Shown here piece after piece: positions 3,678 to 20,555 of a stretch of DNA of 64,000 nucleotides (positions within the stretch are counted from its first letter, which is position 1; every line of letters starts with the position of its first letter). The stretch lies in the NCBI RefSeq assembly GCF_003991155.1, contig NZ_CP031293.1; one strand, 5' to 3'. The notes below the pieces were generated by a model. That model was given only the letters and a program-made list of their open reading frames with translations, did no database searches and was not told the DNA's origin. Position numbers and translations under genes: made by a program. Source of the DNA: Escherichia coli. GTDB taxonomy: Bacteria; Pseudomonadota; Gammaproteobacteria; Enterobacterales; Enterobacteriaceae.

Positions 3678-4737
3678 GTTACTGCAACAGTTGTGCGAAG
3701 CCAGCGCCGTCAGCGGCGATGAACAGGAAGTTCGCGACATTCTGATAAACACGCTGGAACCCTGCGTGAATGAGATCACCTTCGATGGTCTGGGCAGCTT
3801 TGTTACCCGTAAGGGGAATAAAGGGCCGAAAGTTGCCGTTGTCGGGCATATGGATGAAGTCGGCTTTATGGTCACCCACATCGACGAGAGCGGTTTTCTG
3901 CGTTTTACCACCATTGGCGGCTGGTGGAATCAGTCGATGCTCAATCACCGGGTAACCATACGCACACACAAGGGAGTGAAAATCCCTGGTGTAATTGGCT
4001 CCGTCGCCCCACATGCGTTAACCGAAAAGCAAAAGCAACAACCGCTGTCATTTGATGAAATGTTCATTGATATTGGCGCGAACAGTCGCGAAGAGGTGGA
4101 AAAACGCGGCGTGGAAATTGGCGATTTTATTAGCCCGGAAGCCAATTTTGCCTGCTGGGGCGAAGATAAAGTGGTCGGCAAGGCGCTGGATAACCGCATC
4201 GGCTGCGCAATGATGGTCGAGCTACTACAGACAGTAAATAACCCCGAAATTACGCTTTATGGCGTTGGCAGTGTGGAAGAAGAAGTTGGGCTACGCGGGG
4301 CACAAACCTCGGCTGAACACATTAAACCGGATGTGGTGATCGTGCTGGATACCGCTGTCGCGGGCGATGTTCCAGGCATTGATAACATTAAATATCCGCT
4401 GAAACTGGGCCAGGGGCCGGGGCTGATGCTGTTTGACAAGCGCTACTTCCCCAACCAGAAACTGGTAGCTGCGTTAAAAAACTGTGCCGCACATAACGAT
4501 TTACCGCTGCAATGTTCCACCATGAAAACCGGAGCGACGGATGGCGGGCGCTACAACGTGATGGGCGGCGGGCGTCCAGTTGTCGCGCTGTGTCTGCCAA
4601 CGCGTTATCTGCACGCCAATAGCGGTATGATTTCAAAAGCCGATTACGATGCTCTGCTCACGTTGATAAGGGATTTTCTGACCACCTTAACCGCGGAGAA
4701 AGTCAACGCGTTTAGCCAGTTCCGTCAGGTGAGCTAA
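3667..4737 (+). CDS. frvX: M42-family aminopeptidase/endoglucanase-like protein
   Basis: Track ORF 3661..4737; overlaps the frvB stop; about 356 aa; third gene of the frv operon. Confidence 0.88.
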   Translation: MNIELLQQLCEASAVSGDEQEVRDILINTLEPCVNEITFDGLGSFVTRKGNKGPKVAVVGHMDEVGFMVTHIDESGFLRFTTIGGWWNQSMLNHRVTIRTHKGVKIPGVIGSVAPHALTEKQKQQPLSFDEMFIDIGANSREEVEKRGVEIGDFISPEANFACWGEDKVVGKALDNRIGCAMMVELLQTVNNPEITLYGVGSVEEEVGLRGAQTSAEHIKPDVVIVLDTAVAGDVPGIDNIKYPLKLGQGPGLMLFDKRYFPNQKLVAALKNCAAHNDLPLQCSTMKTGATDGGRYNVMGGGRPVVALCLPTRYLHANSGMISKADYDALLTLIRDFLTTLTAEKVNAFSQFRQVS

Positions 4738-17233: not shown

Positions 17234-17865
17234 AACGACGTGACACCATCGTGCGCTACACCGCGCCGGAACGTATCAACCACTGGATCACCGCCTTCTG
17301 CTTCATCCTGGCGGCGGTGAGCGGGCTGGGCTTTTTGTTCCCGTCCTTCAACTGGTTGATGCAAATCATGGGCACACCGCAGCTGGCGCGCATTCTGCAC
17401 CCGTTTGTCGGCGTGGTTATGTTTGCCTCGTTCATCATCATGTTTTTCCGTTACTGGCATCACAACCTAATCAATCGGGATGATATCTTTTGGGCGAAGA
17501 ATATTCGTAAGATCGTCGTCAACGAGGAAGTAGGTGACACCGGGCGTTATAACTTCGGTCAGAAATGCGTTTTCTGGGCGGCGATTATTTTCCTGGTTCT
17601 GCTGCTGGTGAGCGGCGTGATTATCTGGCGTCCTTATTTTGCGCCTGCTTTCTCAATCCCGGTGATCCGATTCGCGTTAATGCTGCATTCATTTGCCGCA
17701 GTGGCGTTAATTGTGGTTATCATGGTGCATATCTACGCCGCCCTTTGGGTAAAAGGCACGATTACCGCCATGGTGGAAGGATGGGTGACCAGCGCCTGGG
17801 CGAAGAAACATCACCCGCGCTGGTACCGTGAGGTCCGCAAGACAACGGAAAAGAAAGCTGAATGA
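17230..17865 (+). CDS. fdoI: Formate dehydrogenase-O cytochrome b556 subunit
   Basis: 211 aa, four TM helices, start overlaps the fdoH stop. Confidence 0.92.
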
Positions 17866-18791
17866 GTATTCGCATAATCCCGCAAGATGAGCTGGGTTCG
17901 AGCGAGAAACGTACGGCGGATATGATTCCGCCGTTATTGTTCCCTCGGCTCAAGAATTTATACAACCGCCGCGCCGAGCGTCTGCGCGAGCTGGCAGAAA
18001 ATAATCCGCTGGGTGATTACCTGCGCTTTGCTGCGCTTATCGCCCACGCCCAGGAAGTGGTGCTGTACGACCATCCGCTGGAGATGGATCTGACCACGCG
18101 CATTAAAGAAGCCAGCGCACAAGGCAAGCCCCCGCTGGATATTCACGTTCTGCCGCGTGATAAGCACTGGCAAAAGCTGCTGATGGCGCTGATTGCTGAG
18201 CTGAAACCTGAAATGAGCGGCCCGGCGCTGGCAGTGATTGAGAATCTGGAGAAGGCATCGACTCAGGAGCTGGAAGATATGGCCAGCGCACTGTTTGCCT
18301 CTGATTTCTCGTCCGTCAGCAGCGATAAAGCGCCGTTTATCTGGGCTGCGCTGTCGCTCTACTGGGCGCAGATGGCTAATCTGATCCCCGGCAAAGCCCG
18401 CGCTGAATACGGCGAACAACGTCAATATTGCCCGGTATGTGGCTCTATGCCGGTGTCCAGCATGGTGCAAATTGGCACCACTCAGGGGCTGCGTTACCTG
18501 CACTGCAACCTGTGTGAAACCGAATGGCACGTAGTGCGCGTAAAATGCAGCAACTGTGAACAGAGCGGCAAACTGCATTACTGGTCGCTGGATGACGAAC
18601 AGGCCGCGATTAAAGCCGAAAGCTGCGATGACTGCGGCACTTACCTGAAGATTCTTTATCAGGAAAAAGAACCGAAAGTTGAAGCCGTGGCAGATGACCT
18701 CGCCTCTCTGGTACTGGACGCGCGAATGGAGCAAGAAGGCTATGCCCGTAGTTCCATCAACCCGTTCCTGTTCCCGGGTGAAGGGGAGTAA
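17862..18791 (+). CDS. fdhE: Formate dehydrogenase formation protein
   Basis: 309 aa with CxxC pairs ([28 protein letters not shown]); overlaps the fdoI stop. Confidence 0.92.
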
Positions 18792-18827: not shown

Positions 18828-19208
18828 TTACAGCTCATAGGGTGTGACGACACCTGCTATTCCCGCAAAATCTCTCGTATTTCGCGTTACCAGTTCAAAG
18901 CCATAAATCTGTGCTGTTGCCAGAATAATGGCATCTGGAAGTTTCATTCTATACTCCTGCCTTAAAGCAACGCTTCGTTCCGCGATATCCTGCGAAATCC
19001 CAATAACGTTAAACGCACTCATTGCAATCCGTGTGCGATGTTCTTGATCATATTTTTTTGCGCCAACCAGCACCTCCATCCATGTGACCAGACTAATCGC
19101 ATTCTGTAGGGGCCATGCCTCCAGAGCCTGTTTTGCCTCAATTCGTCCGCTGAACAAATCGATAAGGATATTGGTATCAAAAAGCGCAGTTCTTTTTGCC
19201 ATTACCAT
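18828..19208 (-). CDS. vapC: PIN-domain ribonuclease toxin, VapC-like
   Basis: 126 aa; N-terminal DTNILID acidic motif typical of PIN/VapC; start overlaps the stop of the upstream RHH gene (ATGGTAA). Confidence 0.75.
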
Positions 19209-19444
19209 TCCTCACGCAGCTTACGCTGATATTCGACACCATCTTCCTCACACCCTTGCCAGATACCAAAAGCACTGGATATTGTCGTTTTCGATTGATT
19301 TTCCAGATATTGATCTACAGCTTCTCGTAATAGCTCTGCGCGAGGAAGATTGCGCTGCACTTTGAGATCATCAAGTCGCTTAATCACCTCATCGGATAAA
19401 TCGAGTAAAATTCTGCCCATATCCATACCTGCCATAGCGCTCAT
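19202..19444 (-). CDS. Ribbon-helix-helix (CopG-like) antitoxin, VapB-like; YiiF-like
   Basis: Start chosen at the ATG preceded by GGAGG ([24 protein letters not shown]...); track ORF extends to 19498. N-terminal beta-strand and helices typical of RHH; stop overlaps vapC start. Confidence 0.65.
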
Positions 19445-19663
19445 ATATACCTCCAGTATATCATTTTTGAATGCATGGTGAGCAAAATACTCTTGCAAAA
19501 CCTTTAAAGAAAGCGCATTTACGCATCATTTTTTATTTTTGCGAGGCGTTTTCCAGATATGATGTAACAGTTGCAGTTATTATAAGTTCAAGTAAAACAA
19601 CCTTGTATTAATACCAGAATAAGGGCATCTGGTTTTTTATATTCAAGAATAAAAAATTTTTTG

Positions 19664-19882
19664 TCATTCCTTATGCTCCTTACACTGATCATCGACACCC
19701 ACTGTCTCCCCCTTTTGCCTGCCTCCCTTTGCTTTACGCACCGGGAATTGCTGACGTTCCAGATATTGCTCTACCGCTTCGCGTAAAATTGCAGATCGTG
19801 AAACCTTACGCCAGCCCCTAAGCTTGTTCAGCCGTTTAATTGCCTCTTCTGATAAATGAAGAAAAACCGTATTCATCGCCAT
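19664..19882 (-). CDS. yiiE: Ribbon-helix-helix (CopG-like) DNA-binding protein, 72 aa
   Basis: MAMNTVFLHLSEEAIKRLNKLRGW...; track ORF starts at TTG 19888, the ATG at 19882 gives the 72-aa length recalled for K-12 yiiE. Confidence 0.75.
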   Translation of the reverse strand: MAMNTVFLHLSEEAIKRLNKLRGWRKVSRSAILREAVEQYLERQQFPVRKAKGGRQKGETVGVDDQCKEHKE

Positions 19883-20310
19883 TACCAATACCTTATATAT
19901 GACTCATTAATGTATGTGCGAAAATTACGCCGAAAAATCATTTAAAAAAAGCGGATTTTTGCATGCTGTTTTGTTTTTGCGAGACGTTTTCCAGAAATAA
20001 TAAGAACGTTGCAGTTGTTTCATTTGTTAATCAAAAATGGTTTAGTTATCGCCCAGGATGAGATATGGGTGCTATAAATATATTATATTCAGGGATATTT
20101 ATTTTTTGATTGGGTCTTCATTTGCATAATCTGAATGGTGTACCCGAAAAATGTCAGCATCCTAACAGCACCAGGATTTAAGGTGAAATTAATCATCCAT
20201 CACAGACCGGTCTTTACTTGCTCGTCGTTATAATTTTGTTGGTAACAGTTTGGGAAACAAGGAATTCCTTCCGGAACACCCCCGGTATCATCCGATAGCA
20301 TTGACGTCAA

Positions 20311-20336
20311 TCATCGGCGCGACGATGAGTTTTTTT
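20311..20336 (+). terminator. Candidate intrinsic terminator (hairpin plus T-run) on the plus strand in the AT-rich intergenic region
   Basis: tcatcg-gcgcga-cgatga stem-loop followed by gttttttt; no annotated plus-strand gene upstream. Confidence 0.3.
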
Positions 20337-20555
20337 AATCGCATCATAGGGTGGCAACGGTCAGCACGATACGGGTCATAGCAAAACTCCTGCACAGGCG
20401 GCCACTATGCCGCTTTCACAGGAGTTCTGAATGCTAGTGCTTTCTGTATGGCATCGCCATGCCCCTCGCGGCTAAGCGCCTGCACACATCTCTCTTTGAA
20501 TGTCATTTTTGCAATGCATTGTCCGAATTCTGATAATCCTAATGAGTTTTACCCG

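Follow-up and report, generated by a model that had tools for sequence, protein, structure and literature searches.

Evidence for an intact chromosomal vapBC pair beside fdhE in Escherichia coli and for K-12 YiiF as its orphan antitoxin

An intact vapBC gene pair

The window analysed here is a stretch of 64,000 nucleotides (nt) of Escherichia coli contig NZ_CP031293.1 (RefSeq assembly GCF_003991155.1), and its element of interest is a pair of overlapping genes on the minus strand, at positions 18828-19444, encoding a VapC-type PIN-domain protein and a ribbon-helix-helix (RHH) protein. With a probability of roughly 0.8, this pair is an intact, chromosomal and vertically inherited vapBC type II toxin-antitoxin (TA) operon, orthologous to VapBC of Klebsiella pneumoniae. 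It is an ordinary vapBC gene pair that was already annotated, and not a new TA system. In fact, the window is 100% identical over 9.75 kb to E. coli 2016C-3878, in which the same boundaries are annotated as 'type II toxin-antitoxin system VapC family toxin' (WP_001129490.1) and 'CopG family transcriptional regulator' (WP_001275523.1). As VapC is thus named in RefSeq and the Klebsiella orthologue has been crystallised, the new content is modest, and consists of the reading of YiiF as an orphan VapB and of a series of decay alleles at this locus. On that reading, the uncharacterised K-12 gene yiiF (and the structure PDB 2K5J) derives from a VapBC system that has since been lost, in which it was the antitoxin gene.

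The toxin gene, vapC (18828..19202, minus strand), encodes a PIN-domain protein of 124 amino acids (aa) ending in TPYEL, and was assigned from the list of open reading frames (ORFs), the Pfam PIN domain, the match to chain B of PDB 7BY2 and RefSeq WP_001129490.1. The antitoxin gene, vapB (19202..19444, minus strand), is the orthologue of K-12 yiiF and encodes an 80-aa protein with an N-terminal RHH domain and a C-terminal tail ending in REEW; its assignment comes from Pfam RHH_1, 2K5J, chain A of 7BY2 and RefSeq WP_001275523.1. Both ORFs converge on fdhE (17862..18791, plus strand), which lies with fdoH and fdoI on the plus strand of the window and is the conserved synteny anchor of the pair.

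The two genes meet in a TAATG stop/start overlap (19200..19204, minus strand), read from the sequence as a probable translational-coupling junction. On the minus strand this junction is GAGGAATGGTAATGGCAAAA (= GAGGAATGGTAATGGCA). The vapB TAA (19204-19202) has one base in common with the vapC ATG at 19202 and lies inside an alternative ATG-GTA-ATG start, in which the in-frame ATG at 19208 would add the residues MV and give a protein of 126 aa (MVMAK...). A GAGG stands 7 nt 5' of the ATG at 19202. The first-pass annotation of this DNA had described a PIN ORF that starts in the stop region of an RHH gene, and the overlap, its coordinates, the DTNILID motif and the string gaATGGTAAtgg have all proved correct. 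In the Citrobacter, Klebsiella and Salmonella diarizonae loci the VapB matches end at 3998 and the vapC match begins at 4001, consistent with the same junction as in the window, and the antitoxin gene stands directly upstream of the toxin gene, VapB before VapC, in 80 related loci.

Domain and structural matches

The Pfam PIN domain (PF01850) is found in VapC with an E-value of 5.1e-19, over residues 9-118 of the 126-aa ORF and positions 2-118 of the 120 in the model, that is, over its whole length. Among PDB entries, VapC is matched best by chain B of 7BY2/7BY3, annotated as 'Ribonuclease VapC' (E 9e-63, ~80% identity over 122 residues). VapB holds an RHH_1 domain (E 7.6e-6, residues 15-48) and matches 2K5J ('yiiF', E 1.6e-39) and chain A of 7BY2 (E 1.1e-36, likewise ~80% identity) along its full length. 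It is predicted to be an antitoxin of the RHH (CopG/MetJ/Arc) type, with an N-terminal DNA-binding domain and a C-terminal toxin-binding extension. Judged by these domain and PDB matches, vapB and vapC are not a chance pair of ORFs, and Pfam, 7BY2, 2K5J and RefSeq agree with the earlier assignment of a VapC-type PIN gene coupled to a YiiF-type RHH gene.

That assignment could be checked by alignment of the catalytic acidic residues, and all four are present: D9, E43, D90 and D111 of VapC align with D7, E42, D98 and E119 of Shigella VapC (3TND). Across 81 homologues, D9 and E43 are conserved in 81/81 and D90 and D111 in 80/81. The ratio of nonsynonymous to synonymous divergence (dN/dS) of vapC comes to 0.17 in comparison with E. 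albertii and to 0.08 in comparison with Citrobacter, and vapC evolves under purifying selection.

The two chains of 7BY2 are 100% identical to the products of the two genes beside fdhE in K. pneumoniae ATCC 13883 (L010). What was crystallised is thus the positional orthologue of the window pair.

Retention of vapC

The first-pass annotation had left it undecided whether the toxin gene was retained or gained in this strain. Three independent lines of evidence, namely synteny, divergence within Escherichia and relics of the gene, indicate that vapC has been retained. The intact vapBC pair is the ancestral state of the fdhE-fabY spacer both in the Enterobacteriaceae and in the genus Escherichia.

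The synteny was established from 483 relatives, scanned at one genome per species, with the best 80 inspected for locus context. In all 45 enterobacterial loci among those best 80 (the species-representative loci L004-L047 and L066), vapB and vapC are directly followed by convergent fdhE and fdoI, and fabY lies on the other side in most of them. Citrobacter, Klebsiella, Salmonella diarizonae, Enterobacter, Kluyvera, Lelliottia, Yokenella, Franconibacter, Kosakonia and Pluralibacter are among the genera included. A position beside fdhE that is so strikingly stable in 45 species might be taken as a sign that the PIN protein is not a toxin and carries out housekeeping RNA processing tied to fdhE and formate dehydrogenase-O. 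This is exceedingly unlikely, as the pair shows the canonical two-gene TA architecture with an RHH partner and vapC is dispensable in ~99% of E. coli, where fdoGHI-fdhE is intact. Moreover, the PIN gene is not co-transcribed with fdhE, because the two are convergent; the conserved position is accounted for by vertical inheritance.

The divergence points in the same direction. In E. albertii the gene order is fabY...yiiE-vapB-vapC-fdhE, VapC is 96% identical to that of the window, and the vapBC DNA differs at 25/733 positions (96.6% identity), a divergence comparable with that of the flanking fdo genes (93.5% identity overall). The synonymous divergence (dS) of the window vapB is 0.02 to E. albertii and 0.28-0.30 to the yiiF of K-12 and ST131, and it is saturated (>=1.8) to Citrobacter, Salmonella and Klebsiella. 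Since dS is low within Escherichia and saturated to other genera, the window allele is native to Escherichia, and a recent transfer from another genus was rejected on these values.

It might nevertheless be proposed that a recent horizontal transfer brought in the toxin gene or both genes together, in the form of a mobile addiction module that now stabilises the adjacent strain-specific island. Several observations could be read in this way: the fdhE-fabY spacer is a hotspot that carries differing cargo, 49 of the 56 vapC-positive E. coli genomes are 100% identical over 617 bp, and the vapB/yiiF block is far more divergent than its flanks (13/52 against 3/212 synonymous differences, p = 6e-8), which means that recombination has acted at the locus. 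We consider such a gain very improbable. It is opposed by the family-wide and E. albertii synteny, by a vapBC identity of 96.6% that keeps pace with the fdo flanks, by the saturated dS to other genera and by the lack of a close enterobacterial plasmid homologue, as well as by vapC relics in vapC-less E. coli and by the independence of the island and vapC. No close copy on an enterobacterial plasmid emerged from a tblastn search of 72,556 plasmids, in which the two close matches are a chromosome-sized record of 5.4 Mb and a 425-kb Citrobacter record; the remaining matches have <=50% identity and come from Rhizobium, Burkholderia and similar genera. The pair lacks the marks of a mobile or plasmid addiction module, its chromosomal position being fixed in 45 species and independent of cargo.

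The first-pass annotation had further suggested that vapBC may stabilise the adjacent island, and this idea is unsupported because the island and vapC each occur without the other. The segment of the island that carries ORF604 (20300-22700) was found at >=80% coverage in 1061/5426 complete E. coli genomes, and vapC in 56/5426. Among vapC-positive strains, SC477 carries a HigB/helix-turn-helix (HTH) pair in place of the ORF604 segment and 06-00048 carries ORF604, and both encode an identical VapC protein. In other genera, vapBC occupies the same site without any such cargo.

Loss of vapC in E. coli

The census of the 5426 complete E. coli genomes is approximate. Intact vapC is present in 56 of them. 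A K-12-type spacer, which includes that of MG1655, is found in 3434 (~63%), an ST131-type spacer in 1034 (~19%), and a 3' vapC relic alone in ~650 (~12%). The relics imply that the gene was present earlier in genomes that now lack it.

In the ST131 type, vapC nt 1-91 are kept with a 1-nt deletion that shifts the frame, and are followed by a deletion of about nt 92-310, a further 15-nt deletion and then the stop codon. The K-12 type shares this deletion junction and the 15-nt deletion, and in it vapC nt 12-66 are replaced by an inverted pair of repetitive extragenic palindromic (REP) sequences. This pair, which resembles a bacterial interspersed mosaic element (BIME), lies in the fdhE-yiiF spacer (L002:3130-3300) and reads GCCGGATGCGGCGTGAACGCCTTATCCGGCCTAC ... 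GTAGGCCTGATAAGCGCAGCGCATCAGGC; the spacer sequence matches at least 40 places in most genomes. A REP element thus seems to have been inserted into a toxin gene that was already dead. The type represented by NGF1 and ATCC 11775 arose by a separate deletion of ~650 bp, running from the block upstream of vapB to vapC nt 316, by which vapB was lost too. Its 59-nt 3' vapC relic is 100% identical to the intact allele, and the deletion junction falls inside the block at 19537-19557. As the deletions of the K-12/ST131 and NGF1 types differ, vapC must have been deleted independently at least twice in the ~99% of sequenced E. coli that lack it, most of which, K-12 included, are left with vapB (yiiF) as an orphan.

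A second departure from the intact state, from the side of the antitoxin, is found in E. albertii. In assemblies GCA_021397505.1 and GCA_008579805.1, codon 23 of vapB is changed from CGA to TGA (R23*; L085:3825-3827 and L087:3825-3827), and the vapC downstream encodes 124 unbroken aa with intact catalytic residues. A look-up of the two returned 4 and 7 further places with mostly the same neighbour genes, R23* itself being read in the two assemblies. In other E. albertii loci (L086, L088) vapB is intact. An intact toxin gene beside a truncated antitoxin gene was unexpected. These alleles suggest that VapC is tolerated without full-length antitoxin. Intact, toxin-less and antitoxin-truncated natural alleles of a single chromosomal TA locus could be used for testing module decay, and, if these readings hold, the locus offers a natural series for studying how a TA pair is dismantled from either side.

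Evidence that weighs against an active toxin

Several results weigh against the reading of the pair as a working TA operon. Since ~99% of E. coli have lost vapC, the toxin would seem to be dispensable and may be no more than weakly toxic when natively expressed. Together with the E. albertii alleles in which vapB carries R23* beside intact vapC, this dispensability means that native toxicity may be low, or that translation of vapC may need coupling to vapB. The VapC of the window scores poorly with specific models: the NCBIfam tRNA(fMet)-endonuclease equivalogs NF047863 and NF010285 give 29.0 bits (cut-off 140) and 19.8 bits (cut-off 143), and the generic TA_toxin_VapC model NF047959 gives 28.9 bits (cut-off 80). 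In a consensus scan, no sigma-70 promoter was found upstream of vapB and no site on the minus strand passed. Finally, the toxicity, ribonuclease activity, operator binding and proteolytic control of the E. coli pair are all inferred.

Taken to the extreme, vapBC could be intact in sequence and inert or nearly so, a relic that survives in ~1% of E. coli for want of a deletion. The loss of vapC in ~99% of complete genomes by at least two independent deletions and the R23* allele with an intact vapC ORF in two E. albertii assemblies both fit this view, as does the lack of a PADLOC defence-model match. It is improbable, however, in the face of a vapC dN/dS of 0.08-0.17, of a catalytic quartet kept in 80-81 of 81 homologues and of a chromosomal position shared by 45 species of Enterobacteriaceae, a sign that an active protein has long been under purifying selection. 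It is also opposed by the identity of WP_001129490.1 in E. coli strains with different neighbouring cargo. The intact operon remains the preferred reading. A role of vapBC as a phage-defence system was considered apart from this and rejected, as PADLOC returned no anti-phage match for VapC, VapB, YiiE or ORF617.

K-12 YiiF as an orphan VapB

In K-12-type genomes, MG1655 included, yiiF and yiiE are present and no gene is annotated between fdhE and yiiF, which bears out the earlier statement that K-12 carries both RHH genes without a PIN partner. One survey regards YiiF as a transcription factor whose function is unknown (PMC9308461). The library searched contained no paper linking yiiF with VapC or 'antitoxin', and nothing relevant joining fdhE and VapC. 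Judged by gene position and protein comparison, K-12 YiiF is an orphan VapB, which has changed faster in amino acids than toxin-linked VapB and whose upstream palindrome and ribosome-binding site (RBS) are degraded.

VapB and YiiF differ at 15/80 residues (81% identity over all 80). When the differences were polarised with three other genera, 11 fell on the orphan branch and 0 on the toxin-linked branch (p = 0.001). The derived changes of YiiF, all at positions conserved in toxin-linked VapB, are S2N, M4L, D18N, R23Q, K28E, E37D, E48I, T54A, I55R, S56T and A58V, and the TTISSA linker of VapB is thereby partly altered in K-12 YiiF. For VapB and YiiF dN/dS reaches 0.35, while the toxin-linked vapB comparisons with estimable dS give 0.02-0.07. 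The changes are unevenly distributed, as in K-12 the last 21 codons hold 0 nonsynonymous changes and codons 1-59 hold 15.

The divergent yiiF/vapB block extends over about 19112-19510, with 82-88% identity to the K-12 and ST131 types (L002, L003), while the flanks are >=97% identical; its limit on the fdhE side is the vapC deletion junction. A comparison of the window with ST131 gives synonymous differences at 13/52 sites in vapB and 3/212 in fdhE (p = 6e-8). The synonymous divergence of vapB/yiiF is 0.28, against 0.01-0.11 for fdhE, and it exceeds the distance of 0.02 between the vapB genes of the window and E. albertii. With a synonymous divergence so far above that of fdhE, relaxed constraint alone is insufficient, and the yiiF haplotype must be old or introgressed. 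These values suggest that the block of K-12 and ST131 is an ancient or introgressed haplotype.

It is possible, and here we are tentative, that K-12 YiiF is no decaying leftover and is maintained for some function, either new or residual; it might regulate transcription, for instance, or cross-neutralise another PIN toxin. In favour of this, the ORF is intact in >4000 genomes, the 21-residue tail is essentially frozen and the haplotype predates the core genes around it (dS 0.28 against 0.01-0.11 for fdhE). An 'anti-addiction' role of the orphan against plasmid-borne VapC is a separate idea, which was found unsupported since the tblastn search of plasmids gave no close enterobacterial copy.

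Candidate control elements and proposed mechanism

The best candidate for a VapB operator is an element delimited by cross-genus alignment at 19442..19463 (minus strand), TGATATACTGGAGGTATATATG. It contains the inverted repeat ATATAC (19461-19456) N5 GTATAT (19450-19445), which covers the GGAGG ribosome-binding site and adjoins the vapB ATG; the element can also be read as an extended -10 (TGnTATACT). Its TGATAT is invariant in 18/18 aligned upstream regions, with variable surroundings, and TGATATAC is kept in 14/15 upstream regions from other genera, the exception being Citrobacter R56 (TGATATGC). The orphan alleles of K-12 and ST131 read TGATATTGGCGAGATATTTATG, in which the second half of the left arm, the RBS and the right arm are degraded. 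No Rfam match at E <= 1 was obtained for a structured RNA or known small RNA in the vapB leader or spacer, and folding gave no significant RNA structure (z-score -0.39).

A second conserved block lies ~95 nt 5' of the vapB start, at 19537..19557 on the minus strand (TCTGGAAAACGCCTCGCAAAA). Aligned across genera (TCTGGAAAaCGcCTCGCAAAA), it keeps TGG and TCGCA at fixed spacing around a variable middle, and a paralogous copy is found within 19936-20019, upstream of yiiE. The GG-N10-GC geometry of the block resembles a sigma-54 promoter, with GT for GC in C. koseri. Spacing and conservation fit a sigma-54 reading of the TGG-N10-GCA block, for which no supporting literature was found; the literature gave a single promoter record for yiiE, an RpoS SELEX (systematic evolution of ligands by exponential enrichment) site.

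According to the mechanism proposed, vapB would be translated first, and translation of vapC would be coupled to it through the TAATG overlap. A VapB dimer formed through the N-terminal RHH domain would repress the operon, with the palindrome over the ribosome-binding site as its likely operator, and the acidic C-terminal tail of VapB would cover the active site of VapC. Upon depletion of VapB, VapC would become active. By analogy with its family, it may function as a Mg2+/Mn2+-dependent PIN endoribonuclease through D9, E43, D90 and D111, and the free toxin would cleave a cellular RNA, leading to translation arrest. The target of the Shigella and Salmonella VapC cannot be transferred to the window VapC, because the equivalog models score far below their cut-offs; on the same scores, tRNA(fMet) was rejected as its target.

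Comparison with known systems

The closest known system is the orthologous VapBC of K. pneumoniae (7BY2/7BY3), which shares its RHH-PIN architecture and catalytic residues with the window pair. As cited in PMC11117207, it has been the subject of a structural and functional study (Kang et al., J Med Chem 2020, PMID 33146528). The host species is another one, and the linker of E. coli VapB is two residues shorter. Furthermore, vapBC is a minority allele in E. coli (56/5426), while the reference strain of K. pneumoniae carries the locus.

The YiiF of K-12 and Shigella (2K5J) is the same gene in the same position as the window vapB, and the C-terminal 21 residues of the K-12 protein are identical. 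It differs in having no toxin partner, with only vapC relics and REP/BIME sequences downstream.

More distant relatives are the plasmid and chromosomal VapBC systems of Shigella (MvpAT, 3TND) and Salmonella LT2, with tRNA(fMet)-specific VapC, which have in common with the window pair the PIN fold, the same four acidic residues and an antitoxin-first type II operon. Their VapC proteins are distant from that of the window (E about 3e-3), and their antitoxin is of the AbrB/SpoVT type, while that of the window is of the RHH type. In FitAB from Neisseria gonorrhoeae, the antitoxin of a PIN toxin is again an RHH protein, whose dimer recognises an inverted repeat within the promoter. FitAB may thus serve as an architectural template for the proposed operator, by analogy only.

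Neighbouring genes of the spacer

The fdhE-fabY spacer is a hotspot for cargo (L003, L084, L085, L092). In ST131 a DUF6708 protein and a hypothetical protein are encoded between yiiF and yiiE, in NGF1 and E. albertii the cargo consists of a NadS-family or HTH pair and an alpha/beta hydrolase, and in the window it is a SopB-like ORF.

This ORF lies between yiiE and fabY on the minus strand, at 20556-22370 (604 aa; ORF604) or to 22409 from a GTG start (617 aa; ORF617). RefSeq annotates it as a 'transposase' and a pseudo 'hypothetical protein', and no sequence match was found in Pfam, NCBIfam, PADLOC or PDB. Its family is small, with 52 matches among 1.8 billion representative proteins, and holds an invariant C-x4-D-R core with the consensus CKSAKDR, a CX5R P-loop. 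The AlphaFold model (predicted local distance difference test, pLDDT, 84.9; predicted template modelling score, pTM, 0.86) has Salmonella SopB (8JZL) as its best match, with an E-value of 7e-7. Further matches are Legionella SidP and SidF and, in the AlphaFold database (AFDB), SopB-type and INPP4/SAC-type phosphatases. According to the model, ORF604 looks like an unannotated phosphoinositide phosphatase of the SopB/IpgD kind. The gene is also present in Shigella, and K-12 keeps a 35-aa relic of it.

The remaining neighbour, yiiE (19664..19882, minus strand; ORF and RefSeq yiiE), encodes a 72-aa RHH paralogue of VapB without the VapB-type C-terminal tail, and is not part of the TA pair. At the locus it was seen in E. 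coli and E. albertii; the other genera checked lack it, and the sole YiiE-like match there is vapB itself. The region with vapB and its upstream sequence (19301-19581) matches 19757-20019 at 66.5% nucleotide identity over ~280 bp, and yiiE therefore looks like a partial tandem duplication of vapB.

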